This document shows, piece after piece, positions 1,335 through 52,586 of a stretch of 53,943 nt of DNA. Below the pieces are notes generated by a model, which had not been told where the DNA came from, did not search any database, and saw only the letters and a program-made list of their open reading frames with translations. The stretch's first letter is position 1. Each line of letters opens with the position of its first letter. The DNA comes from a virus. Lineage: Duplodnaviria; Heunggongvirae; Uroviricota; Caudoviricetes. Position numbers and translations under genes: made by a program. The DNA is taken from the IMG/VR virus record IMGVR_UViG_2869947659_000002. The stretch is one strand, 5' to 3'.

Positions 1335-1685
1335 TTACTCCCTGACAGGATTTGCAGGCCACTCAATATCAGGTGCAGTTGATGTATCAACACGGTTCAG
1401 CAACACCCGATACTTTTTCCAGGCTTCCAGCAATGAGGTTTCTTCCTCCGTTGCAATTTCCAGATCTGCAGCATCCTGAAGCGGCGCAATATGCTCACTG
1501 GCTACCTGCATCAGGTTGTTTTTTGTTTCTTCCGCTTCCCGTATCCGAAACAGTTTTTCTGCTTCTTCATCTTTCACCCAGGATGTGCCGTTCCACTTCT
1601 GAAACTCCCCTTCCGGGGATAACCAGGTGACATTTTCCGGTAATGAGCCGAGTTCAGAAATAAATAACGCGTCGCCGGAAGCCAC
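1335..1685 (-). CDS. tfa: tail fiber assembly protein Tfa, N-terminally truncated (GTG start)
   Basis: Protein matches Tfa of lambdoid phages ([12 protein letters not shown]...[46 protein letters not shown]); in-frame TGA 24 nt upstream of the GTG, so the usual ~75-aa N-terminal part is absent. Confidence 0.7.
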
Positions 1686-1847
1686 GTCATAAACCGTTTT
1701 ACCCCGATGATCCCATCAGTAACAGACAACGGACCTGAAATAGTCCCTCCAGTTGTTGGCAGCGCTCCAATATCTGATGGTGTAGGTTTCTGATGTGAGC
1801 TATACATCGTATAAACAACACCATCGGTAACGCTGGTGGATTTGCCC

Positions 1848-2753
1848 CTATATTTCCAGACATCTGTTATCACTTAACCCATTACAAGCCCGCTGCCGCA
1901 GATATTCCCGTGGCGAGCGATAACCCAGCGCACTATGCGGATGCCATTCGTTATAATGTTCGAACGCCTCTGCAAGGTTCTTTGCTGCCGTTAACCCGTC
2001 TGGTTTGGGCATGATACTGATGTAGTCACGCTTTATCGTTTTCACGAAGCTCTCTGCTATTCCGTTACTCTCCGGACTCCGCACCGCCGTGTTCTTCGGT
2101 TCAAGTCCCAACATCCGGGCGAACTGGCGTGTTTCATTAGCCCGGTAGCATGAACCATTATCCGTCAGCCACTCCACTGGAGACGACGGAAGATCGTTGC
2201 CGAAGCGGCGTTCCACCGCACCCAGCATGACGTCCAGTACTGTTTCACTGTTGAAGCCGCCGGTAGTCACCGCCCAGTGCAGTGCCTCACGATCACAGCA
2301 GTCCAGCGCGAACGTGACACGCAGTCTCTCTCCGTTATCACAGCAGAACTCGAACCCGTCAGAGCACCATCGCTGATTGCTTTCTTTCACGGCCACTCTG
2401 CCTGTATGTGCCCGTTTCGATGGCGGTACAGCAGGTTTTCGCTCAAGCAACAGCGCATTCTGGCGCATGATCCGGTAAACACGTTTGGCATTGATCGCAG
2501 GCATACCATCAAGTTCTGCCTGTCTGCGAAGCAGCGCCCATACCCGACGATAACCATACGTGGGCAGCTCTCCGATAACATGGTGTATACGGAGAAGCAC
2601 ATCCGTATCATCAGTGTGACGACTGAGGCGGCCATCCATCCAGTCATCGGTTCGTCTGAGAATGACGTGCAACTGCGCACGCGACACCCGGAGACAACGG
2701 CTGACTAAGCTTACTCCCCATCCCCGGGCAATAAGGGCGCGTGCGCTATCCAC
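1848..2753 (-). CDS. insD: IS2 transposase OrfB (InsD)
   Basis: 301-aa ORF with IS3-family DDE transposase features; identical to the copy at 46075..46980. Confidence 0.95.
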
Positions 2754-3076
2754 TTTTTTGCCCGTCCATATTCAACGGCTTCTTTGAGGAGTTCATTTTC
2801 CATCGTTTTCTTGCCGAGCAGGCGCTGGAGTTCTTTAATCTGCTTCATGGCGGCAGCAAGTTCAGAGGCAGGAACAACCTGTTCTCCGGCGGCCACAGCA
2901 GTAAGACTTCCTTCCTGGTATTGCTTACGCCAGAGAAATAACTGGCTGGCTGCTACACCATGTTGCCGGGCAACGAGGGAGACCGTCATCCCCGGTTCAA
3001 AGCTCTGCTGAACAATTGCGATCTTTTCCTGTGTGGTACGCCGTCTGCGTTTCTCCGGCCCTAAGACATCAATCAT
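2711..3076 (-). CDS. insC: IS2 OrfA (InsC), HTH protein
   Basis: 121 aa from [18 protein letters not shown]; overlaps insD as expected for a -1 frameshift fusion. Confidence 0.9.
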
Positions 3077-3674
3077 CTGTACTCCAATGACTAGTCTAAA
3101 AACTAGTATTAAGACTATCACTTATTTAAGTGATACTGGTTGTCTGGAGATTCAGGGGGCCAGTCTAGCTGGAAGGCTTACTCGCTGAATATGTTAGCGA
3201 GGTATAAATAGAAACTGACGCATTTGTAGTACAATCCCAATGGATATTTACACTCGTCGCATAATTGCCAATCTCAACGTAAATATCATATATATCGCCG
3301 GATGTGTTGATCCAGGCGAAATTCGTTAATCCGACGGCTGTACGCTTCCACAAAGCTCCGGTAATCCCTTTGGGGTTTCCATTGCCTGCTCGTAGAACCA
3401 GTTCAGATATACCTGCCTGTTGAGGTGCCCCCACGTTAAATCCAGCGCCACCAATCAATGCGATGTAAACGATGGAACTCGCTTGTGGCATGGTAACCGT
3501 TGCCAGTTTGAACCACCCTGCCCCGCCAGAGAAAGAGATCGTTACTGAATTTAAAGTGCCAATATCTTTCGGTGTTAATGTTATATCCGCAGTCAGTGCT
3601 TTCCCGTTAACTTTTCGGTTAGATGGTACCCTGAGGTGTACTGGCAATAGCGGACACTACCATTTGTTCTTTTT

Positions 3675-4493
3675 TTAAGCAGCTATCTGATGATATTTTT
3701 CCCTGAAGGCTGCCGGGGAGATATTCCCCAGACGAGAGTGACGACGCTGACGATTGTAGAAAATCTCAATGTATTCCCGTATTACTGAGATGGCTTCATC
3801 CCGGTTATTAAAACGATAGTGGCTCAGGCTCTCATTTTTCAGCGTTCCCCAGAAGCTTTCCATCGGAGCGTTGTCGTAACAGTGACCTTTACGCGACATT
3901 GATGTTTTCAGACCAGACTGCTCCTGTATGACCCGGTAATCGTATGCGCAGTACTGTGAACCTCGATCAGAGTGGTGGATTAGCCCGGCAGGTGGGCGCT
4001 GGCTCCTGAGCGCCATAAACAGGGCTTTACCTGTCAGCTCTTTTGTCATGCGCTCTCCCATGGCGTAGCCGACAATTTCGCACGTATAAACATCTTTGAT
4101 GCCAGCGAGGTACAACCATCCCTCCTGTGTGGCAACATACGTCAGGTCCGCCACCCAGACCTGATTTGGTGCTGTAGGAGCGAACGTCTGGTTCAGCAGA
4201 TTTGGCGCAACTGGCAGATTGTGGTTCGGGTTCGTAGTCGCTCTGAACTTGCGTTTCTGCTTACAGCGTAGCCTTAGCTCCTTACGAAGACGTGCCAGTC
4301 GGTCACGACCAACGATGATGCCATTCTCTGCCAGCTCCGTCTGGAGCCGCCGGGTTCCATATGTTTCGCGAGTGCGGATATGTGCCACCTTAATCTCCAG
4401 TTTTAGCCGCTCATCACTTTGTTTTCTGTCTGAGGGTTCATGCTGTACCCAGTTGTAATAACCGCTCCTGGATACACCAAATACCTGACACAT
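3675..4493 (-). CDS. IS3-family transposase OrfB (DDE integrase domain)
   Basis: 272-aa ORF; same protein (one residue different at the C-terminus) as the copy at 48769..49587. Confidence 0.9.
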   Translation of the reverse strand: MCQVFGVSRSGYYNWVQHEPSDRKQSDERLKLEIKVAHIRTRETYGTRRLQTELAENGIIVGRDRLARLRKELRLRCKQKRKFRATTNPNHNLPVAPNLLNQTFAPTAPNQVWVADLTYVATQEGWLYLAGIKDVYTCEIVGYAMGERMTKELTGKALFMALRSQRPPAGLIHHSDRGSQYCAYDYRVIQEQSGLKTSMSRKGHCYDNAPMESFWGTLKNESLSHYRFNNRDEAISVIREYIEIFYNRQRRHSRLGNISPAAFREKYHQIAA

Positions 4494-4528
4494 CGCTTCA
4501 ATGGGAAATTGTTGTCGCCATTGTTCGA

Positions 4529-4831
4529 TTAACGCGTATTTTTCAGCGACTCCTGTGCAAAATACGCTGTTGCTTTTTTTAATATATCTCGCTCAAGGCG
4601 AGCTTCATTTAACGCCTTACGCAGTTGCAGAATTTCAGATTCCAGTTCAGCCACCGTGCGGGAACCAGGAGTACCGAGCCCTTTTCTGGCGGCGGTAACC
4701 CATTGTCCTAAAGTGCCTTCAGGAAGGGATAATCGGGAAGCGCCTTCACTGATCGAAAGTTGATTTTCAAGAACCGTTCTGACAGCTTCGGCTTTGAACT
4801 CTTTAGAGTAACGTTGGTTTTTTCTGCTCAT
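4529..4831 (-). CDS. IS3-family OrfA (HTH/leucine zipper)
   Basis: 100-aa ORF MSRKNQRYSKEFKAEAVRTVLENQLSISEGA...; identical to the copy at 48431..48733. Confidence 0.9.
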   Translation of the reverse strand: MSRKNQRYSKEFKAEAVRTVLENQLSISEGASRLSLPEGTLGQWVTAARKGLGTPGSRTVAELESEILQLRKALNEARLERDILKKATAYFAQESLKNTR

Positions 4832-6071
4832 TATTAGCTCCTTCTGATGCCATTCTATTTCAGGAAGGAGTGTCCGTTAAACTCAGGCTACCTCACCCTG
4901 CCATTCGCATTGTCATTCGCTGCTTTAACTGCCTTCGGTGTCGCGGCAAGCGTTTCAGATGTGCTGTTGGTTGCACTGCTGAGCTGTACTATCCCCTTTT
5001 TCGTCGTGCTCGCATCCTCAAGCGCCACGGCGGATGCAATATCCTCTGCCCGTTTTGCCGCTGTCTCGGCGCGCGTTGCCGCGGATTCCGCCGTACTTTT
5101 GCTCTGAGCTGCCGCCGTCACACTGCCAGCTGCCTCTGTCGCCTTCGTGGATGCCGTCGTGGCGCTGCCCTTTGCTGCTGACGCCTGTCTGGTCGCCTCA
5201 TCTTTTGAAGCAGACGCAGATGATGCCGATGACGCCGCCGAACTGGCGGACGATGCGGCAGCCGTTTTTGAGGATTCTGCGCTGGTTTCCGAGGCTTTCG
5301 CGTTCGTTTCGGATGTCTTCGCTGCCTCTTTTGAGGCCGCCGCATCCCGTGCTGAAGTGGCTGCTTCTGACGCTTTCGTGGTCGCGGTGGATGCAGAAGT
5401 GGCTGCTGATTGTTGTGACGCAGCCGCATTCGTTTCTGACGTTTTCGCCGCACCGGCACTGGTAGCCACCGCGCTTTTTGAGGACTCTGCAGCGGCAGCA
5501 CTTTTTGATGCTTCAGTAGCCTTTGTTGATGCCGTTCCTGCGCTGGAAGACGCTGACTGAGCCGACGTCGCGGCCTGCCCGGCTGATGTGCTGGCTGCAC
5601 GTGCTGAGCCTGCAGCATCAGTCGCATGGGTTGCCGCCTCACTGGCAGATATGCTGGCATCGCTGGCTGACTTCTTCGCGGCTGCCGTGTTCTGTGCAAC
5701 CGCGGAGGCGTTACGTGACACCTCTTCCACCATCTGCTCAAAGCGGCGCAGTGCCTCCGGTCGGACATCATCCTCCGTCATGGCACCGAGAAAATCATTC
5801 AGCGTACCTGGTCTGGAACCTTCATAGACGGTAATGGTCCCGGCATGTGAAGGCGGAAAACCTTCAACCAGCAGGGTGACGCTGTACTGGCCATGCTCAA
5901 CATCCATGCTGTAACGTCCGGCTTCATCCGGATTTTCAGAGGCCACCGTGTTCACCACCACCGTGCTGCTGGTTCGTCTGGCCTTCAGCACAATGGTGCA
6001 GTTCTGTACTGGTTTTCCTGTGCCATCTTTAAGCACGCCAGAAATTTTTACTGTCATACTTTTCCACCAAT

Positions 6072-32101: not shown

Positions 32102-32325
32102 GAATCCTCCCGGCCGGGATAATATTGTGAGTAAAATAAGGAGCGGGCTGAAGTCCGGAAGTTACAGGACAATGGCAGAAGAGAGACGACAGCCCGCAAT
32201 TCGAAAAAGACCGCGCAGTTGCGCAGAGTGATTACTATGGGGTATTATTCGCCAGCTGAAATATTACTTCACGTTTTATTGTTTATTCCTTGCCGCCCGC
32301 GTCTCCCAGCGCGGGCTTTTTTTGC

Positions 32326-32575
32326 CCACAAGAAAACCCCTCCGGAGAGGGGCTAAAGCCGCGTATCTGTATCATCATGCACATGGTGCCGGGTGCCTCC
32401 CGGTGAGTTCAGCCCGGTGCCACTAAACCCGCGTCATTCTCGTTTTGATAATCAGAGATTATACCGTCACCAGTCGCCCCTCCGCTCAGGGGGATTCACC
32501 ATGCGAAATTTTTTTAACAAATGCCCAGTCTGACAGGCAACTGTCAACTTACTGAATTGTGAGCAACATAGCATT
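32326..32575. repeat. structured ~245-bp repeat unit A (imperfect direct repeat of unit B)
   Basis: Shares conserved blocks with 32815..33060: CCCCTCCGGAGAGGGGCT hairpin, CATGGTGCCGGGTGCCTCCCGGTGA, GCCCCTCCGC.CAGGGGGATTCACCATGC, CTGAATTGTGAG. Confidence 0.6.
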
Positions 32576-32814
32576 TAACGGGGAACCTGTTTTCTGCAGT
32601 AAAAAGGCCCACCGGAGCGGATGGGCCTGGAAGGATAGCGGTCATGTGATGCCGGTTTCCCGGTAACTCAGCACCGGTATCTGAGTCAACGTTTTCTCTA
32701 CTGGGTCATTTCCGATACGCCCTGCCTGCTGACAGGCTTTCATCACATCTGAAAATATAGCACCCTGACTGATACTGTAGTACCTAAGGTTCCAGAAACT
32801 GTGATGTATCCGGC

Positions 32815-33060
32815 ACAGAAAAGCCCCTCCGGAGAGGGGCTGGAGAGTGGCGCTATGTGCCATTGCATGGTGCCGGGTGCCTCCCGGTGAATTCAGTACC
32901 AGCACCTGAATCCGCGATTATCCCATATACCTACTCGCTGATTGCCCCTCCGCACAGGGGGATTCACCATGCCAGTTTCTTTTAACAAACTCCCCGCAAA
33001 CCAGACAACAGTCAACCGCCTGAATTGTGAGACATTTAAAAAAAAGCCCGCAAAAGCGAG
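32815..33060. repeat. structured ~245-bp repeat unit B
   Basis: See unit A; the GC hairpin is followed by a T-tract on the minus strand (terminator-like); lies directly downstream of the tRNA cluster. Confidence 0.6.
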
Positions 33061-33076
33061 CCAGGGAAAATAAGTG

Positions 33077-33153
33077 TGGCGCGTTGTACTGGATTCGAAC
33101 CAGTGACCGATTGCTTAGAAGGCAATTGCTCTGTCCGGCTGAGCTAACAACGC
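33077..33153 (-). tRNA. argN: tRNA-Arg (anticodon UCU)
   Basis: 77-nt cloverleaf read by eye: GCGUUGU acceptor, D-arm AGCUCAGCCGGACAGAGC, anticodon loop CUUCUAA, T-loop GGUUCGAAUCC, CCA end. Confidence 0.85.
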
Positions 33154-33166
33154 AGGATACAGATAA

Positions 33167-33243
33167 TGGACCGCCTTCGGGGACCCGAACTCCGCGCAAC
33201 CAGCTTCGAAGGCTGGCGCTCTTTCCTGATGAGCTAATGGCGG
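33167..33243 (-). tRNA. tRNA-like gene, probably tRNA-Arg (anticodon UCG), possibly degenerate
   Basis: Anticodon stem-loop CCAGC-CUUCGAA-GCUGG and CCA end, but an A-A mismatch in the acceptor stem and an imperfect T-stem. Confidence 0.5.
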
Positions 33244-33250
33244 TATGTGA

Positions 33251-33326
33251 TGGTGGCCCTTGCTGGATTTGAACCAGCGACCTGGCGATTATGAGTCGCT
33301 CGCTCTCACCACTGAGCTAAAGGGCC
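33251..33326 (-). tRNA. ileZ: tRNA-Ile2/Met-type (anticodon CAU), ileX-like
   Basis: GGCCCUUUAGCUCAGUGGUGAGAGC...CUCAUAA...GGUUCAAAUCC...GGGCCACCA; closely resembles E. coli tRNA-Ile2. Confidence 0.8.
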
Positions 33327-38063: not shown

Positions 38064-38219
38064 TTACTCCTCAGGTTCGTAAGCTGTGAAGACAGCGACC
38101 TCCGTCTGGCCGGTTCGGATTCGTACCTCGCAGAGGTCTTTCCTCGTTACCAGTGCCGTCACTATGACGGTTAAACAGATGACGATCAGGGCGATTAGCA
38201 TCGCCTTTTGCTGCTTCAT
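38064..38219 (-). CDS. hokD: Hok/Gef-family type I toxin (HokD/RelF-like), with overlapping mok-like frame to 38276
   Basis: MKQQKAMLIALIVICLTVIVTALVTRKDLCEVRIRTGQTEVAVFTAYEPEE; six-frame ORF 38064..38276 gives the mok-like upstream extension. Confidence 0.9.
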   Translation of the reverse strand: MKQQKAMLIALIVICLTVIVTALVTRKDLCEVRIRTGQTEVAVFTAYEPEE

Positions 38220-38961
38220 AGCCTGCTTCTCCTTGCCTTTCGGCACGTAAGAGGCTAACCTACGTGTGTAGAGCATAGATATGGCCTCAGATTAATGTTA
38301 AGCGTCTTGCCGGACGCGTAATGTTAACTGGGGCTTTTCTCTATCTGCCTTTGGTGTTGATGCCCGAGGCAGATAGCCTCAAGCACCCGCAGCAATTCTA
38401 CTTAACTACCGTTACCTCGCCAATATGAAATCAATCAGAAAGGTGATCCATAAGAACAACAGCAAGACAATAAATTGCCATTACAGCAGCAATAGCCAGC
38501 GCACATTTGAGAACCAGCACCACAACCTCCTGTATTGGACGTACACCAGTCCTGATAAATATGAGGCTGTCTCGTCAGTGATTCAATACAACTACTGGGT
38601 ATAGTTTCTATGATTTTGTTCTGTGGAAATGGAAAACAGCAACCAGTCACCACCAGCACTTCTTTAAACATGCCAAGTCACACGCAAGCCAACATTATAG
38701 TTCCCTTTGAGCGAGCAGATGAAGCTAGCAAAAATATTGATCACTTAGGATGCATTACTAACGTTGCTATGTGTTAACGAACAGGGAGTGGGTCATCAGC
38801 ATAAATATTTATGCAGTAGGTTTCTTTTAGGACTAGATTAATCAAAAACATTTAGATAAAATTATAAAATCAAGAAATTGGTGGCAATTAATCTTTAATT
38901 GTGCCAGCTGAATTTCGTTATTATAGAAGATTAGCTTTTTTTTGAATGTTTGGAGAGTAAA

Positions 38962-43274: not shown

Positions 43275-43722
43275 TTGCTTTTTCTATAAGTTCGTCAGTT
43301 TCACGATCCACTACGGCAGGATCAGCAAAAAGCAGTCCGGACTCCACCACATCGCCATATTCTTTGTTTAACCCGGCGATCATGTACGTGATGCTTTTTC
43401 CGTCACTAATTTCACGATACAACCTGAAATCATTAATCCGGATAGCCTCCATAATTGCAGGCACTAGCGCCGTGAACTTTTCACGCTTATCCCTGGTGTC
43501 GATAGCCTTCCAGCGTTCGAATATCTTCACTCGATTAACGCCAAGCGCTCGCTGATCAACCGCGCCACCTTCATCTGTGACACGCTGAACATCGATGTTC
43601 GGGCGCTCTTTCAAAGCCCAGAATGCTTCAGTGATTAATATCGTCGCCTGCTCCTGTGTCATTCCTGGTCGACATATCCAGGCATCCAGAGCCTCACGAG
43701 CCTGTTCAGGAGTGATTTTCAT
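43201..43722 (-). CDS. hypothetical early-region protein (173 aa)
   Basis: ORF immediately downstream of dicC; no family recognised. Confidence 0.5.
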   Translation of the reverse strand: MKITPEQAREALDAWICRPGMTQEQATILITEAFWALKERPNIDVQRVTDEGGAVDQRALGVNRVKIFERWKAIDTRDKREKFTALVPAIMEAIRINDFRLYREISDGKSITYMIAGLNKEYGDVVESGLLFADPAVVDRETDELIEKAIAFKLAYRQQYQQKAGWNYEPSFC

Positions 43723-43933
43723 TGTTCAACCGCCCCGCCCGCTTCGTCTTACGATATTCGTCATAAACCTTGGGATCATACAGAAGCTCGCCGCCAGATG
43801 CCTCCTGTAGACGCATCGCGCGACCTTCAGGAACTAGCTCTTGCCATTGAGAAACAGCAGATGGGTCAACGCCAGCAGCTTTCGCTACTTTGGCTTTCGT
43901 ACCGTAAAAATTAATTACGTCTGATTTAAACAT
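43706..43933 (-). CDS. dicC: Cro-like repressor DicC
   Basis: From MFKSDVINFYGTKAKVAKAAGVDPSAVSQWQ...VPEGRAMRLQEASGGELLYDPKVYDEYRKTKRAGRLNNENHS; divergent from dicA; six-frame ORF extends to 43960. Confidence 0.8.
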   Translation of the reverse strand: MFKSDVINFYGTKAKVAKAAGVDPSAVSQWQELVPEGRAMRLQEASGGELLYDPKVYDEYRKTKRAGRLNNENHS

Positions 43934-44010
43934 CGCACCTCCAATATTGAGTTTTCTCAATGCTAATCACTCAAGGAATCTCAAGTCAAGGATTATTAAG
44001 ATATCTAAAT
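43934..44010. promoter_or_regulatory. immunity-region operator/promoter region between dicC and dicA
   Basis: Contains 14-bp palindrome TTGAGTTTTCTCAA (43947..43960) and CTCAAG half-site repeats; related sites recur at the pL-like promoter. Confidence 0.5.
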
Positions 44011-44418
44011 ATGAACGAGAAAACTTTAGGTCAACGCATTAGAGAAAGACGTAAGCAGGTAGGCTTAAGTCAAAACGGTTTAAGCAAAGCTGCTGGCGTA
44101 TCTGGCTCATCAATTTCATTATGGGAAAGTGACCATACAGCCCCGCGCGGGCAAAATTTGCATCGCCTCGCCGAGGTATTGCAATGTTCACCAACCTGGA
44201 TACTGTTTGGCGACGAGGACAAAACACCAGCTCCCCCTGTTTCACTCGATAGTACCCTAGACTTATCGGAAGATGAGTTAGAGATGCTGCGTTTGTATCG
44301 CGCACTTCCTAAATCAGAGCAACAAGCACAACTCAGCGAACTCCGCGCCCGCGTTGAGAATTTTAATCGCCTGTTCACCGAGCTATTAGAGGCTCGCAAA
44401 CGCAACAAGCATCAATAA
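44011..44418 (+). CDS. dicA: prophage repressor DicA (CI-like HTH)
   Basis: MNEKTLGQRIRERRKQVGLSQNGLSKAAGVSGSSISLWESDHTAPRGQNLHRLAEVLQCSPTWILFGDEDK..., 135 aa. Confidence 0.85.
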   Translation: MNEKTLGQRIRERRKQVGLSQNGLSKAAGVSGSSISLWESDHTAPRGQNLHRLAEVLQCSPTWILFGDEDKTPAPPVSLDSTLDLSEDELEMLRLYRALPKSEQQAQLSELRARVENFNRLFTELLEARKRNKHQ

Positions 44419-44505: not shown

Positions 44506-44534
44506 TTGACGAAAAATAATGAGAAAACTAAATT
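44506..44534 (+). promoter_or_regulatory. pL-like early-left promoter with overlapping operator-like sites
   Basis: TTGACG (44506..44511), 17-nt spacer, TAAATT (44529..44534); flanked by TTGAGTTTTCTCA (44484..44496) and its near-inverse TGAGAAAACTAA. Confidence 0.45.
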
Positions 44535-44610
44535 ACCTCCATCAACACACCGCACGGTGTTCTCCGCAAACAGTTCCGCTACCCCGGCGTTAAGGGGAAA
44601 TGAGGTCAGC

Positions 44611-44766
44611 ATGGATACTATCGATCTTGGCAACAACGAATCTCTGGTGTACGGCGTGTTTCCAAACCAGGACGGCACGTTCACCGCAATGACGTATACC
44701 AAAAGCAAAACGTTTAAAACCGAAAATGGTGCCCGTCGCTGGCTGGAAAGAAACTCAGGTGAGTGA
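44611..44766 (+). CDS. ydfA: small prophage protein YdfA-like (51 aa)
   Basis: ATG 44611 with GAGG RBS; size and position after dicA as in Qin; the upstream part of six-frame ORF 44455..44766 overlaps the promoter. Confidence 0.7.
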   Translation: MDTIDLGNNESLVYGVFPNQDGTFTAMTYTKSKTFKTENGARRWLERNSGE

Positions 44767-44767
44767 T

Positions 44768-44896
44768 ATGGATTTCGACACAATCATGGAAAAGGCTTAC
44801 GAAGAATACTTCGAAGGCCTTGCCGAAGGCGAAGAAGCTCTCAGCTTCAGTGAGTTTAAACAGGCGCTTTCCAGCTCGGCAAAATCTAACGGCTGA
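44768..44896 (+). CDS. ydfB: small prophage protein YdfB-like (42 aa)
   Basis: ATG overlapping the ydfA stop (TGATATG); MDFDTIMEKAYEEYFEGLAEGEEALSFSEFKQALSSSAKSNG. Confidence 0.65.
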   Translation: MDFDTIMEKAYEEYFEGLAEGEEALSFSEFKQALSSSAKSNG

Positions 44897-44925: not shown

Positions 44926-45144
44926 ATGCAGAAACGAGAACCCGTCATCATCGCGCCAGACTATACCGATGATGAACTTTATGAGTGGATGCACCAGAAA
45001 ATTAATGCAGCGCAGGATCTGAAATGGGCCAATGAAGCCAGGGCTAAGCAGGCTGAAAATCTGTCCGCTCTGGAGCAGGATATCACTAATCTGGAAAAAG
45101 CAGCGGCATTAAGCATTGCCAGAATGATTACATACCCGCGTTAA
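44926..45144 (+). CDS. ydfC: small prophage protein YdfC-like (72 aa)
   Basis: 72-aa ORF immediately upstream of the DicF precursor region. Confidence 0.7.
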   Translation: MQKREPVIIAPDYTDDELYEWMHQKINAAQDLKWANEARAKQAENLSALEQDITNLEKAAALSIARMITYPR

Positions 45145-45485
45145 TAGCTAACCAACGAAGCTAAGGTTGGTAATTAAGGAGTTCTCCACGGGTGAGGTGG
45201 AGTGCGTGCGCCGGACACGGGTGAGCATCCGGCACTGACAGTTTACTGAAAGGATATTTCCCTGAAAAGTCAGACCATAACGCGAAAGCGCACGGCGAGG
45301 TAGCTGGTTCATAGATAGCCTGTCGTTAAATTTTCGTCGACCGTGCGCTTCCGGTTGTGGCAATCCGCGAAATGGCGCGGCGGTAAGTATGGCGGGGTTA
45401 TTCCTTCCACCGTTGAGGACACCGGGTTGTCAGGTTGACCATACGCTTAAGTGACAACCCCGCTGCAACGCCCTCTGTTATCAAT

Positions 45486-45543
45486 TTTCTGGTGACGTTT
45501 GGCGGTATCAGTTTTACTCCGTGACTGCTCTGCCGCCCTTTTT
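45486..45543 (+). ncRNA. dicF: DicF small regulatory RNA (53-nt mature form plus U-tail)
   Basis: Exact match to the DicF sequence as I recall it: TTTCTGGTGACGTTTGGCGGTATCAGTTTTACTCCGTGACTGCTCTGCCGCCC followed by TTTTT. Confidence 0.85.
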
Positions 45544-45751
45544 AAAGTGAATTTTGTGATGTGGTGAATGCGGCTGAGCGCACGCGGAACAGTTAAAACC
45601 AAAAACAGTGTTATGGGTGGATTCTCTGTATCCGGCGTTAATTGTTAACTGGTTAACGTCTAGACTGGCCCCCTGAATCTCCAGACAACCAGTATCACTT
45701 AAATAAGTGATAGTCTTAATACTAGTTTTTAGACTAGTCATTGGAGTACAG

Positions 45752-46117
45752 ATGATTGATGTCTTAGGGCCGGAGAAACGCAGACGGCGTACCACACAGG
45801 AAAAGATCGCAATTGTTCAGCAGAGCTTTGAACCGGGGATGACGGTCTCCCTCGTTGCCCGGCAACATGGTGTAGCAGCCAGCCAGTTATTTCTCTGGCG
45901 TAAGCAATACCAGGAAGGAAGTCTTACTGCTGTGGCCGCCGGAGAACAGGTTGTTCCTGCCTCTGAACTTGCTGCCGCCATGAAGCAGATTAAAGAACTC
46001 CAGCGCCTGCTCGGCAAGAAAACGATGGAAAATGAACTCCTCAAAGAAGCCGTTGAATATGGACGGGCAAAAAAGTGGATAGCGCACGCGCCCTTATTGC
46101 CCGGGGATGGGGAGTAA
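45752..46117 (+). CDS. insC: IS2 OrfA (InsC)
   Basis: Identical to copy 1 InsC. Confidence 0.9.
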
Positions 46118-46980
46118 GCTTAGTCAGCCGTTGTCTCCGGGTGTCGCGTGCGCAGTTGCACGTCATTCTCAGACGAACCGATGACTGGATGGATGGCCGC
46201 CTCAGTCGTCACACTGATGATACGGATGTGCTTCTCCGTATACACCATGTTATCGGAGAGCTGCCCACGTATGGTTATCGTCGGGTATGGGCGCTGCTTC
46301 GCAGACAGGCAGAACTTGATGGTATGCCTGCGATCAATGCCAAACGTGTTTACCGGATCATGCGCCAGAATGCGCTGTTGCTTGAGCGAAAACCTGCTGT
46401 ACCGCCATCGAAACGGGCACATACAGGCAGAGTGGCCGTGAAAGAAAGCAATCAGCGATGGTGCTCTGACGGGTTCGAGTTCTGCTGTGATAACGGAGAG
46501 AGACTGCGTGTCACGTTCGCGCTGGACTGCTGTGATCGTGAGGCACTGCACTGGGCGGTGACTACCGGCGGCTTCAACAGTGAAACAGTACTGGACGTCA
46601 TGCTGGGTGCGGTGGAACGCCGCTTCGGCAACGATCTTCCGTCGTCTCCAGTGGAGTGGCTGACGGATAATGGTTCATGCTACCGGGCTAATGAAACACG
46701 CCAGTTCGCCCGGATGTTGGGACTTGAACCGAAGAACACGGCGGTGCGGAGTCCGGAGAGTAACGGAATAGCAGAGAGCTTCGTGAAAACGATAAAGCGT
46801 GACTACATCAGTATCATGCCCAAACCAGACGGGTTAACGGCAGCAAAGAACCTTGCAGAGGCGTTCGAGCATTATAACGAATGGCATCCGCATAGTGCGC
46901 TGGGTTATCGCTCGCCACGGGAATATCTGCGGCAGCGGGCTTGTAATGGGTTAAGTGATAACAGATGTCTGGAAATATAG
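46075..46980 (+). CDS. insD: IS2 transposase OrfB (InsD)
   Basis: Identical to copy 1 InsD. Confidence 0.95.
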
Positions 46981-47048
46981 GGGCAAATCCAACGTCACCT
47001 GGAGGCACCAGGCACCGCATCACAAAATTCATTGTTGAGGACGCGATA

Positions 47049-47237
47049 ATGAAAACGTTATTACCAAACGTTAATACGTCTGAAGGTTGTTTTGAAATTG
47101 GTGTCACTATCAGTAACCCAGCATTTACTGAAGATGCCATTAACAAGAGAAAACAAGAACGGGAGCTATTAAATAAAATATGCATTGTTTCAATGCTGGC
47201 TCGTTTACGTCTGATGCCAAAAGGATGTGCACAATGA
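47049..47237 (+). CDS. dicB: cell division inhibitor DicB
   Basis: MKTLLPNVNTSEGCFEIGVTISNPAFTEDAINKRKQERELLNKICIVSMLARLRLMPKGCAQ (62 aa); six-frame ORF starts inside IS2. Confidence 0.85.
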   Translation: MKTLLPNVNTSEGCFEIGVTISNPAFTEDAINKRKQERELLNKICIVSMLARLRLMPKGCAQ

Positions 47238-47425
47238 ATTCAGCATTTGTGCTTGTTCTGACAGTTTTTCTTGTTTCCGGAGAGCCAGTTGATATTGCAG
47301 TCAGTGTTCACAGGACAATGCAGGAGTGTATGACTGCAGCAACCGAACAGAAAATTCCCGGTAACTGTTACCCGGTCGATAAAGTTATTCACCAGGATAA
47401 TATCGAAATCCCGGCAGGTCTTTAA
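47234..47425 (+). CDS. ydfD: small secreted/lysis-associated protein YdfD-like
   Basis: MNSAFVLVLTVFLVSGEPVDIAVSVHRTMQECMTAATEQKIPGNCYPVDKVIHQDNIEIPAGL; ATG overlaps the dicB stop. Confidence 0.75.
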   Translation: MNSAFVLVLTVFLVSGEPVDIAVSVHRTMQECMTAATEQKIPGNCYPVDKVIHQDNIEIPAGL

Positions 47426-48430
47426 AACAGTTCCGTAATAAATATCCGGTTTCATTCTTATATGCCAGCAATGGCAGGGATTTGTTCATCCTTAAATCTG
47501 TCATGAGGTTAAAACAAATGAGTAAAGTCTTTATTTGCGCCGCTATTCCTGACGAACTGGCAACAAGGGAAGAAGGCGCTGTGGCTGTAGCCACAGCCAT
47601 TGAAGCTGGCGACGAACGCCGTGCTCGAGCAAAATTTCACTGGCAATTCCTGGAACATTATCCGGCTGCTCAGGACTGCGCTTATAAATTTATTGTCTGC
47701 GAGGATAAACCTGGCATACCCCGCCCTGCCCTCGATTCATGGGATGCTGAATATATGCAGGAAAACCGCTGGGATGAGGATTCTGCTTCTTTTGTCCCGG
47801 TTGAGACTGAATCCGATCTGATGAACGTCACTTTTGACAAGCTGGCCCCTGAAGTACAGAACGCTCTCATGGTTAAGTTCGACACATGTGAAAACATCAC
47901 CGTTGATATGGTTATTAGCGCACAGGAATTGTTGCAGGAAGACATGGCAACATTCGACGGCCATATCGTTGAAGCGTTGATGAAAATGCCAGAAGTTAAC
48001 GCCATGTATCCGGAGCTTAAGTTGCATGCCATTGGGTGGGTTAAGCATAAATGTATTCCTGGTGCTAAATGGCCCGAAATTCAGGCAGAGATGCGCATCT
48101 GGAAAAAACGTCGTGAAGGTGAACGCAAGGAAACCGGAAAATACACGTCTGTTGTTGATCTTGCCCGCGCCAGAGCCAATCAACAGTACACTGAAAATTC
48201 AACAGGAAAAATCAGCCCGGTCATTGCTGCCATTCATCGCGAATACAAGCAGACATGGAAAACACTGGATGACGAACTGGCCTACGCTCTCTGGCCTGGT
48301 GATGTGGATGCCGGAAACATTGACGGCAGCATCCATCGCTGGGCAAAAAATGAAGTTATCGACAACTGAGGTAGCCTGAGTTTAACGGACACTCCTTCCT
48401 GAAATAGAATGGCATCAGAAGGAGCTAATA

Positions 48431-48733
48431 ATGAGCAGAAAAAACCAACGTTACTCTAAAGAGTTCAAAGCCGAAGCTGTCAGAACGGTTCTTGAAAATC
48501 AACTTTCGATCAGTGAAGGCGCTTCCCGATTATCCCTTCCTGAAGGCACTTTAGGACAATGGGTTACCGCCGCCAGAAAAGGGCTCGGTACTCCTGGTTC
48601 CCGCACGGTGGCTGAACTGGAATCTGAAATTCTGCAACTGCGTAAGGCGTTAAATGAAGCTCGCCTTGAGCGAGATATATTAAAAAAAGCAACAGCGTAT
48701 TTTGCACAGGAGTCGCTGAAAAATACGCGTTAA
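48431..48733 (+). CDS. IS3-family OrfA
   Basis: Identical to 4529..4831. Confidence 0.9.
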   Translation: MSRKNQRYSKEFKAEAVRTVLENQLSISEGASRLSLPEGTLGQWVTAARKGLGTPGSRTVAELESEILQLRKALNEARLERDILKKATAYFAQESLKNTR

Positions 48734-48768
48734 TCGAACAATGGCGACAACAATTTCCCATTGAAGCG

Positions 48769-49587
48769 ATGTGTCAGGTATTTGGTGTATCCAGGAGCGG
48801 TTATTACAACTGGGTACAGCATGAACCCTCAGACAGAAAACAAAGTGATGAGCGGCTAAAACTGGAGATTAAGGTGGCACATATCCGCACTCGCGAAACA
48901 TATGGAACCCGGCGGCTCCAGACGGAGCTGGCAGAGAATGGCATCATCGTTGGTCGTGACCGACTGGCACGTCTTCGTAAGGAGCTAAGGCTACGCTGTA
49001 AGCAGAAACGCAAGTTCAGAGCGACTACGAACCCGAACCACAATCTGCCAGTTGCGCCAAATCTGCTGAACCAGACGTTCGCTCCTACAGCACCAAATCA
49101 GGTCTGGGTGGCGGACCTGACGTATGTTGCCACACAGGAGGGATGGTTGTACCTCGCTGGCATCAAAGATGTTTATACGTGCGAAATTGTCGGCTACGCC
49201 ATGGGAGAGCGCATGACAAAAGAGCTGACAGGTAAAGCCCTGTTTATGGCGCTCAGGAGCCAGCGCCCACCTGCCGGGCTAATCCACCACTCTGATCGAG
49301 GTTCACAGTACTGCGCATACGATTACCGGGTCATACAGGAGCAGTCTGGTCTGAAAACATCAATGTCGCGTAAAGGTCACTGTTACGACAACGCTCCGAT
49401 GGAAAGCTTCTGGGGAACGCTGAAAAATGAGAGCCTGAGCCACTATCGTTTTAATAACCGGGATGAAGCCATCTCAGTAATACGGGAATACATTGAGATT
49501 TTCTACAATCGTCAGCGTCGTCACTCTCGTCTGGGGAATATCTCCCCGGCAGCCTTCAGGGAAAAATATCATCAGATGGCTGCTTAA
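48769..49587 (+). CDS. IS3-family transposase OrfB
   Basis: Same as 3675..4493 apart from one C-terminal residue. Confidence 0.9.
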   Translation: MCQVFGVSRSGYYNWVQHEPSDRKQSDERLKLEIKVAHIRTRETYGTRRLQTELAENGIIVGRDRLARLRKELRLRCKQKRKFRATTNPNHNLPVAPNLLNQTFAPTAPNQVWVADLTYVATQEGWLYLAGIKDVYTCEIVGYAMGERMTKELTGKALFMALRSQRPPAGLIHHSDRGSQYCAYDYRVIQEQSGLKTSMSRKGHCYDNAPMESFWGTLKNESLSHYRFNNRDEAISVIREYIEIFYNRQRRHSRLGNISPAAFREKYHQMAA

Positions 49588-50170
49588 AAAAAGAACAAAT
49601 GGTAGTGTCCGCTATTGCCAGTACACCTCAAACGACCGCGAAGACTGGAAGCGTATCTCGGCATCAATGCGCAAACAGCCTGATGTCCTTCGCTACGACC
49701 GCCAGACTATTTTTGGCCTTGTCCGTGAACGTCCGATCGACATTCACAAAGACCCTGTGGCACTGAACAAATACATTACTGAATACCTGACTACAAAGGG
49801 CGTGTTTGAAGATGAAGGAAGAAATCAGAGCGCAACTGATACTCTCTCGTCGCCAGTACCAGAAACTGATGCAGTGGAAACGGCAATTCCGGACAACGAA
49901 AAAACCGAATGCAAAGTGGAAGTCGAACCATCTGTAGAGCGTGAGGGGCCGTTCTACTTCCTCTTCACCGACAAGGATGGCGAAAAATACAGTCGCGCAA
50001 ACAAACTTTCTGGTCTGGATAAGGCGCTGGCTGCCGGGGCAACTGAAATCACGAAAGAAGAATATTTTGCCCGCAAAAACGGCACATACACAGGTTCACA
50101 ACAAAATGAGGTAGCCTGAGTTTAACGGACACTCCTTCCTGAAATAGAATGGCATCAGAAGGAGCTAATA

Positions 50171-50458
50171 ATGAGCAGAAAAAACCAACGTTACTCTAAA
50201 GAGTTCAAAGCCGAAGCTGTCAGAACGGTTCTTGAAAATCAACTTTCGATCAGTGAAGGCGCTTCCCGATTATCCCTTCCTGAAGGCACTTTAGGACAAT
50301 GGGTTACCGCCGCCAGAAAAGGGCTCGGTACTCCTGGTTCCCGCACGGTGGCTGAACTGGAATCTGAAATTCTGCAACTGCGTAAGGCGTTAAATGAAGC
50401 TCGCCTTGAGCGAGATATATTAAAAAAGCAACAGCGTATTTTGCACAGGAGTCGCTGA
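50171..50458 (+). pseudogene. IS3-family orfA, frameshifted
   Basis: Frame lost after ...ERDILKK at an A7-to-A6 contraction relative to copies 1 and 2. Confidence 0.8.
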
Positions 50459-50507
50459 AAAATACGCGTTAATCGAACAATGGCGACAACAATTTCCCAT
50501 TGAAGCG

Positions 50508-51344
50508 ATGTGTCAGGTATTTGGTGTATCCAGGAGCGGTTATTACAACTGGGTACAGCATGAACCCTCAGACAGAAAACAAAGTGATGAGCGGCTAAAA
50601 CTGGAGATTAAGGTGGCACATATCCGCACTCGCGAAACATATGGAACCCGGCGGCTCCAGACGGAGCTGGCAGAGAATGGCATCATCGTTGGTCGTGACC
50701 GACTGGCACGTCTTCGTAAGGAGCTAAGGCTACGCTGTAAGCAGAAACGCAAGTTCAGAGCGACTACGAACCCGAACCACAATCTGCCAGTTGCGCCAAA
50801 TCTGCTGAACCAGACGTTCGCTCCTACAGCACCAAATCAGGTCTGGGTGGCGGACCTGACGTATGTTGCCACACAGGAGGAATGGTTGTACCTCGCTGGC
50901 ATCAAAGATGTTTATACGTGCGAAATTGTCGGCTACGCCATGGGAGAGCGCATGACAAAAGAGCTGACAGGTAAAGCCCTGTTTATGGCGCTCAGGAGCC
51001 AGCGCCCACCTGCCGGGCTAATCCACCACTCTGATCGAGGTTCACAGTACTGCGCATACGATTACCGGGTCATACAGGAGCAGTCTGGTCTGAAAACATC
51101 AATGTCGCGTAAAGGTCACTGTTACGACAACGCTCCGATGGAAAGCTTCTGGGGAACGCTGAAAAATGAGAGCCTGAGCCACTATCGTTTTAATAACCGG
51201 GATGAAGCCATCTCAGTAATACGGGAATACATTGAGATTTTCTACAATCGTCAGCGTCGTCACTCTCGTCTGGGGAATATCTCCCCGGCAGCCTTCAGGG
51301 AAAAATATCATCAGATGGCTGCTCAAAAAAAGAACAAATGGTAG
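50508..51344 (+). CDS. IS3-family transposase OrfB with stop-loss extension (6 extra residues)
   Basis: Identical to copy 2 OrfB except one Gly-to-Glu change and read-through ...[11 protein letters not shown]. Confidence 0.8.
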
Positions 51345-52586
51345 TGTCCGCTATTGCCAGTACACCTCAAAATACTGATGCATCTGACACGACCGCACAA
51401 CCAGACCTGGTAAAAGTTACCGCTGACGAAGTAAACAAAATTATGCAGGCAGCCAGTATCAGCCAGCCTGACGCTAATAAGTTGCTCGCTGCATCACGTG
51501 GTGAATTTGTTGAAGGGATTAGCGACCCGAATGATCCGAAATGGGTGAAGGGGATTGAAACCCGCGATTCTGTGCACCAGAACCAGTCAGAAACGGAACA
51601 GTACGACCAAAAAGCGGAACAAAACAGCCAAAATGCGTTACAAAACGAGCCAGAAACGAAACAACCTGAACCAGTCGTGCAACAGGAAGAGGAAAAAGTT
51701 TGTACCGCATGCAATCAGACTGGTGGTGGTAACTGCCCTGATTGTGGCGCAGTGATGGGTGACGCAACCTACCAGGAGACATTCAACGAAGAAAGCCAGG
51801 ATGAAGCCCGGGAAAAAGATCCAGAGGAAATAGAAAATGCCGGACTCCCGAACAAGGAGTGCACCGAAGGCGATCAACATGCCAATGACAATAATGAAAT
51901 AGGCGAGACAGCAAATCCCTTAATTAAGGTGAACGGTCATCGTAAAAGCACATCCACCAGCAGGTTGTGGCACCATCTGATGATTGACCTTGAAACCATG
52001 GGAAAAAATCCTGATGCCCCGATTATCTCAATAGATGCAATATTTTTCGATCCGCAAACCGGAGATATGGGACCGGAATTTAGTAAGACTATCGATCTGG
52101 AAACTGCTGGCGGAGTCATTGATCGTGACGTCATTAAAAGGTGGCTGAAGCAATCACGTGAAGCGCAGTCTGCCATTATGACCGATGAAATCCCGTTAGA
52201 TGATGCACTGTTACAATTGCGGGAATTTATCGACGAAAACTCCGGTGAATTTTTTGTTCAGGTCTGGGGAAATGGAGCCAACTTCGAAAACACGATTTTG
52301 CGCCGTTCATACGAACGGCAGGGGATCCCCTGCCCATGGCGTTACTACAACGATCGCGATGTACGCACAATCGTTGAGCTGGGGAAAGCCATAGACTTCG
52401 ATGCCAGAACGGCTATTCCATTCGAAGGTGAGCGCCATAATGCACTTGATGACGCCCGTTACCAGGCAAAATACGTTTCAGTTATCTGGCAAAAACTGAT
52501 CCCGAATCAGGCTGATTTTTAATGTTCAACCCCGGTCGTTGCCCACCAGCTATAGTGGCGGCGACCATGATTAGCGAACGACGCTC

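Follow-up and report, generated by a model that had tools for sequence, protein, structure and literature searches.

An IS2 insertion between DicF and dicB in a Qin-like module of a Shigella boydii prophage

Insertion of IS2 into an operon is classically polar, with Rho-dependent loss of distal gene expression, and a 1985 work by Yarulin and Gorlenko is reportedly cited for such a polar insertion. Old genetics also held that IS2 in one orientation ('orientation I/II') can turn on distal genes, and a promoter upstream of dicB has reportedly been suggested. In Escherichia coli K-12, the operon that carries DicF and dicB is served by one promoter, dicBp, upstream of ydfA, with no internal promoter found; the main dicBp transcript of 1,146 nt ends just past DicF, and the dicB mRNA is a longer transcript of 1,608 nt produced by read-through of the DicF terminator (PMC10448788).

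Here we analysed a stretch of 53,943 nucleotides of viral DNA (hereafter the window), in which a complete IS2 lies between DicF and dicB. With a probability of roughly 0.7 for the explanation as a whole, we attribute the locus to a simple and fairly recent IS2 transposition into the DicF-dicB spacer of a Qin-like dicBF module, carried by a lambdoid prophage of a Shigella boydii lineage, in which polarity would strongly lower dicB expression, DicF would be unchanged and no new promoter would be made.

The IS2 copy, its insertion site and the host prophage

The features that define the insertion are as follows.
45656-45660: target-site duplication ACGTC, left copy, flanking the IS2 start
45661..46991, plus strand: IS2, 1331 bp, complete, transposase genes co-directional with dicB
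45752..46117, plus strand: orfA of IS2
46069: A6G frameshift site (AAAAAAG) of IS2, intact
46075..46980, plus strand: orfB of IS2
46992-46996: target-site duplication ACGTC, right copy, flanking the IS2 end
1837..3167, minus strand: second IS2 copy, with its own duplication GCTGG

The element in the spacer begins with TAGACTGGCCCCCTGAATCT and ends in GGGGCAAATCCA, and its termini form imperfect inverted repeats (left TAGACTGG..., right ...GCAAATCCA). Within it, orfA overlaps orfB, with the A6G site for -1 frameshifting between them; OrfA is the same as K-12 OrfA, OrfB carries 2 substitutions relative to K-12, and the called IS2 genes match the Pfam families HTH_Tnp_1, HTH_21, rve and rve_3. 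The copy differs from an IS2 of K-12 HMS174 by 8 nt mismatches (99.4% identity) and from the other IS2 copy in the window by 1 nt. Judged from this sequence, it is apparently a functional element.

The empty site, that is, the ancestral state of the DicF-dicB spacer, exists: it is present in E. coli strain 203740 over 278 bp at 100% identity. At the corresponding place in K-12 and 15 other loci, ACGTC occurs a single time (GGTTAACGTCACCTGG), which identifies the ACGTC repeat as a true target-site duplication and the event as a simple insertion. The spacer measures 174 bp without IS2, and in the window 122 bp separate the end of DicF from the start of IS2. These ends and the empty site confirmed what the initial annotation had read from the sequence, namely an ACGTC-flanked IS2 with DicF intact on one side and the dicB and ydfD genes intact on the other, and its placement of the IS end 57 bp upstream of the dicB ATG agrees with the coordinates (46991 versus 47049). 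The coordinate 45150, from which that annotation started the locus, is simply the end of ydfC.

Across 12,426 nt, the window showed 0 mismatches to GenBank CP026766.1, a record found via the exonuclease fragment at 47518..48369 and whose DicB protein the sources name as that of Shigella boydii. An ORF spanning the IS2-dicB junction occurs in 3 assemblies, which indicates that the insertion is real and inherited within an S. boydii lineage. Misplacement of an IS2 copy between DicF and dicB by repeat misassembly would be conceivable for a multicopy element with two near-identical copies in one window. Nevertheless, the perfect 5-bp duplication that is single-copy at the empty site, the recurrence of the junction-spanning ORF in separate assemblies and the fact that CP026766.1 is a 4.68-Mb contig leave such an artefact with a negligible probability.

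With junction queries, we found the ACGTC site occupied by a spacer IS2 in 0/5426 complete E. coli genomes, and the exact left junction had no match in a species-representative genome collection, in which Shigella is presumably folded into E. coli. A literature search on IS2 in dicB or dicF, with a reach that stopped short of the older IS2 and dicB papers, returned nothing relevant.

The dicBF module resides in a roughly 50-kb lambdoid prophage adjoining ompW. The prophage carries two IS2 and three 1264-bp IS600-like copies (a name that we take from the length and the OrfA sequence) and is decaying. A YdfE-type exonuclease gene (47518..52522; 823 aa in relatives) is in 3 pieces, split by two of the IS600-like copies.
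48367..49630, plus strand: IS600-like copy splitting the exonuclease gene
50107..51369, plus strand: IS600-like copy splitting the exonuclease gene

Insertion sequences bracket the prophage in mirror image, with IS2 and an IS600-like copy on the minus strand at the left (1837..4895) and IS2 and two IS600-like copies on the plus strand at the right (45661..51369). This layout could allow a 42-kb inversion. We considered recombination between the inverted IS2 copies and rejected it, as both keep matching duplications and there is no inversion across them. The other Rfam matches in the window, all on the minus strand, comprise IS009, two STnc100, three tRNA genes (33080..33326) and a sok antitoxin RNA; these lie at 1378..1576, 32324..33326 and 38214..38388 and are typical of lambdoid late and accessory regions.

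DicF and dicB on either side of IS2

The operon around the insertion comprises the following features.
43706..43960, minus strand: Cro/DicC-like regulator gene, an ORF divergent from the repressor gene, in the immunity region
44011..44418, plus strand: DicA-like repressor gene, 135 aa from the ATG at 44011, with HTH_3/HTH_31 Pfam matches
44506..44534, plus strand: dicBp-like promoter 5' of ydfA, from a promoter scan (TTGACG, 17-bp spacer, TAAATT)
44611..44766, plus strand: ydfA, product identical to K-12 YdfA
44768..44896, plus strand: ydfB, product identical to K-12 YdfB
44926..45144, plus strand: ydfC, R23H relative to K-12 YdfC
45276..45362, plus strand: long hairpin 5' of DicF, from RNA folds of the window and K-12, conserved with K-12
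45487..45538, plus strand: DicF sRNA (Rfam RF00039), the U-tract of its terminator running to about 45544
46992..47048, plus strand: 57-bp residual spacer holding the dicB ribosome-binding site GAGGA
47049..47237, plus strand: dicB, 62 aa, V24A relative to K-12, intact
47234..47425, plus strand: ydfD, lysis protein (DUF1482, PF07358 match), identical to K-12 YdfD

Upstream of the operon, the repressor/Cro pair (43706..44418) shares only about 50-60% nucleotide identity with K-12 dicA/dicC, and its immunity type is not that of K-12 DicA/DicC. Gene callers gave the repressor as 152 aa, with the K-12-length form beginning at 44011, and the Cro/DicC-like gene matched Pfam P22_Cro on the identical locus (L015/L035). 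A mosaic boundary lies just 5' of ydfA, near 44590, with ~99% identity to K-12 downstream (ydfA-ydfD) and ~50-60% upstream. The TTGACG/TAAATT site was assigned by its position as the equivalent of K-12 dicBp and is termed dicBp-like; its regulation by the DicA-like repressor is assumed by homology.

DicF is identical in sequence to K-12 DicF and matched RF00039 at 76.7 bits (gathering score 48) over model positions 1-52 of 52, and its terminator consists of a hairpin of -15.9 kcal/mol followed by CUUUUU. RNase III processing of DicF is known (PMC10448788), and the hairpin at 45276..45362 is the likely RNase III substrate yielding the 190-nt DicF precursor, as suggested by that length of 190 nt. 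The elements predicted to be needed for DicF production, namely a promoter-like site, a hairpin upstream and a terminator, are all present and conserved. Since the determinants of DicF (the dicBp-like promoter, ydfABC, the hairpin, the RNase E-side sequence and the intrinsic terminator) all lie upstream of IS2 and are unchanged, DicF output should stay unaffected by the insertion.

Downstream of IS2, DicB agrees with its K-12 counterpart at 61 of 62 residues and matches PF05358 on the record; the V24A variant recurs in exactly the same form in 422 collection blocks. The GAGGA motif is positioned 7 nt ahead of the dicB ATG. The reading frame of dicB is open for 135 nt upstream of its functional start, and the ACGTC insertion site falls inside this longer ORF. 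The description of IS2 as inserted precisely between DicF and dicB thus holds for the spacer, but the insertion also interrupts this longer ORF. K-12 dicB is likewise preceded by 135 nt of open frame, the old 'long ORF' with an internal start. By its title, the 1988 work of Cam et al. is said to indicate that the 62-aa inhibitor does not come from the longer ORF.

The insertion creates an ORF of 90 aa (46965..47237), whose ATG lies within the right inverted repeat of IS2 and which continues in the frame of dicB; it is catalogued in RefSeq and UniRef under the name 'cell division inhibition protein DicB [Shigella boydii]' (WP_422785489.1). We saw no Shine-Dalgarno sequence before the ATG of this ORF, and the 90-aa 'DicB' starting inside IS2 is for that reason probably an annotation artefact. 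An OrfB-DicB fusion was also considered and rejected, because the frame of the 90-aa ORF differs from that of orfB.

In E. coli GPEC1035, PGAP annotates a pseudogene 'DicB, missing C-terminus' upstream of IS2 (L001, 2727..2795), which corresponds to the beginning of the long in-frame ORF, with a GTG start, so RefSeq DicB models sometimes take in the upstream extension. In E. coli FDAARGOS_1299, an inverted IS2 lies about 23 nt into dicB (L026, 2837..4338), and the annotated dicB (WP_204638963.1) begins within the IS2 left end, a chimeric start. Genomes named S. dysenteriae or S. flexneri (L031 3880..4282, also L032-L034) carry dicB-ydfD-exonuclease but have lost dicF and ydfABC entirely. A rearrangement there has its breakpoint about 88-90 bp 5' of the dicB ATG, only a few bp from where IS2 sits in FDAARGOS_1249; it adjoins an antiterminator-Q gene encoded on the other strand, and a 93-aa ORF (P0025) results.

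Possible transcription out of IS2

The initial annotation had also proposed that the insertion uncouples dicB from the ydfABC-dicF transcript and puts it under whatever transcription exits IS2. The first part is plausible by analogy with the K-12 operon; the second has little support. A promoter scan from the last 300 bp of IS2 (46700 on) to the dicB ATG found no consensus promoter and none scoring at least 9/12, the best promoter-like site in the outward IS2 end reaching 8/12 with a 15-bp spacer. A candidate outward -35 box in the right inverted repeat, TGGAAA at 46970 (our own placement), leads at 17-bp spacing to CGTCAC, which gives 6/12, no other -35/-10 pairing over this junction scoring higher; no fusion promoter of the ampC::IS2 type is therefore formed. 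In reporter assays, promoter activity was undetectable for both strands of the right-end 150 bp of IS2, and the right end had the lowest probability of promoter gain by mutation (PMC12095673). The known minicircle-junction promoter of IS2 takes its -35 box from the right inverted repeat and its -10 box from the left one, and needs a spacing of exactly 17 bp (PMC3299598).

Under the explanation that we prefer, dicB and ydfD would be reached only by transcription that reads through the DicF terminator and on across 1.3 kb of IS2. Some ~870 nt of orfB would be largely untranslated, as its translation needs a rare frameshift, and would be prone to Rho-dependent termination, which makes Rho-dependent polarity the likeliest outcome. 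The DicA-controlled expression of dicB would thereby be strongly reduced, with no new promoter made by the insertion. As dicB itself lacks a promoter, its expression is probably lowered by the polarity of IS2. Such attenuation may be incomplete, however: IS2 is co-oriented with dicB, so some repressor-independent dicB expression is possible. The repressor here is of another immunity type than that of K-12, and its control of dicBp is assumed by homology. At most, a weak repressor-independent trickle might reach dicB from the co-directional IS2 transposase promoter, and the other conceivable source of exit transcription would be read-through from dicBp itself.

A stronger form of this idea is that IS2 acts as a mobile promoter, giving low constitutive expression of dicB-ydfD from the transposase promoter independently of the DicA-like repressor, in which case DicB-mediated exclusion of ManYZ-using phages would be possible. 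The transposase genes and dicB share a direction, orfB stops 11 bp short of the IS2 end, no intrinsic terminator was predicted from the IS2 left-end promoter to dicB, and the dicB ribosome-binding site is intact. In addition, IS2 is documented to build promoters for neighbouring genes (PMC9330008), and low-dose DicB is described as protective against phages (PMC10448788). Nevertheless, the left-end transposase promoter is weak and repressed by OrfA (PMC3299598), the right end is without promoter activity, the documented IS2 cases need a fusion-promoter -10 box at 17 bp that is absent here, and ~870 nt of poorly translated orfB RNA precede dicB. Taken together, these points make activation of dicB by IS2 unlikely.

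IS2 in the dicBF module across E. coli and in known systems

We surveyed 5426 complete E. coli genomes with junction queries in both IS2 orientations and fetched 16 loci. This mapped 16 independent IS2 sites in the operon, all in a stretch of about 1.4 kb and in both orientations; positions are given relative to the dicB ATG and orientation relative to the IS2 of the window.
Same orientation: -722, -514, -248, -83, -45, +78, +315, +328, +494
Inverted: -612, -512, -465, +23, +107, +352, +668
This window (same orientation by definition): -57

Insertions within the spacer occur in the window, in GPEC strains and in FDAARGOS_1249, within 40 bp and in one orientation. It is conceivable that such insertions were favoured, silencing a toxic dicB/ydfD while keeping DicF, and that the spacer is a recurrent adaptive target. 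The three independent spacer insertions (-83, -57 and -45) with one orientation, a fourth IS2 22 bp 5' of DicF, and the toxicity of DicB and YdfD on expression would fit this idea. On the other hand, 13 further IS2 sites are spread over ~1.4 kb in both orientations and also fall inside dicB, ydfD, the ydfB/C region and the exonuclease gene, and with 3 insertions in 174 bp the spacer is hit about as densely as the region (17 in ~1,400 bp). A shared orientation in 3/3 or 4/4 cases lacks significance, an intact repressor gene already keeps the operon repressed, and the uninterrupted DicF-spacer-dicB arrangement is kept at least once per genome in 4007 of the 5426 genomes. We accordingly regard selected uncoupling as improbable. 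Still less probable is the further idea that the same-orientation insertions represent a recurrent adaptive rewiring, with DicF under repressor control and dicB-ydfD expressed at a low, repressor-independent level from the transposase promoter; if true, it would provide constitutive DicB exclusion of ManYZ-dependent phages without lethal filamentation.

Two hotspot hypotheses were examined and rejected. An orientation-specific hotspot is at odds with chimeric queries carrying an inverted IS2, which show inverted insertions to be about as frequent. A regional hotspot would rest on IS2 places at ~2-3x the uniform genome expectation, an excess that is too weak and is confounded by clonality and module copy number. 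Overall, there is no significant sign of a spacer- or orientation-specific hotspot, or of selection. The insertion in the window is probably one more of the numerous IS hits, neutral or mildly beneficial, that go with prophage decay in IS-rich Shigella. The shared orientation of the window, GPEC and FDAARGOS_1249 spacer insertions might point beyond neutrality, but n=3 is not significant.

The locus is a previously undescribed allele of textbook type: its parts all belong to well-known families, and it involves no new element or mechanism. As a natural allele that should part DicF from DicB/YdfD production, it could be used to test the respective shares of DicF and DicB/YdfD in filamentation, metabolism and phage exclusion in Shigella.

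Among known systems, the insertions in GPEC1035/1209/1210, FDAARGOS_1249, Eco_23-2678 and 13 others are likewise IS2 copies in this operon. Three of these E. coli IS2, located in the DicF-dicB spacer or adjoining it, have the orientation seen in the window; the insertion points and duplications in E. coli (for example GGCAC and GCAAC) differ from the ACGTC of the window. K-12 Qin (dicC/dicA, dicBp, ydfABC, dicF, dicB, ydfD, ydfE) has the gene order and orientation of the window and ~99% nucleotide identity over ydfA-ydfD, whereas the window has IS2 in the spacer and another immunity type. The window module adjoins ompW, in contrast to the Qin site of the K-12 module, and its exonuclease gene is split by two IS600-like copies where K-12 has an IS2 remnant.

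In ampC::IS2 (Jaurin and Normark 1983) and at the minicircle junction, a gene lies downstream of a right end with an outward -35 box, as in the window. Unlike in ampC::IS2, the -10 box at 17 bp is missing here, and dicB is 57 bp away without another promoter-like site. The anatomy fits a polar insertion, with IS2 inside a single-promoter unit, the polarity effect itself being predicted. Polar insertions of the gal::IS2 type likewise place a full IS2 within a polycistronic unit whose distal genes are intact; in the window, by contrast, the interrupted unit holds an sRNA with its own terminator upstream, and only the distal protein genes would be affected.
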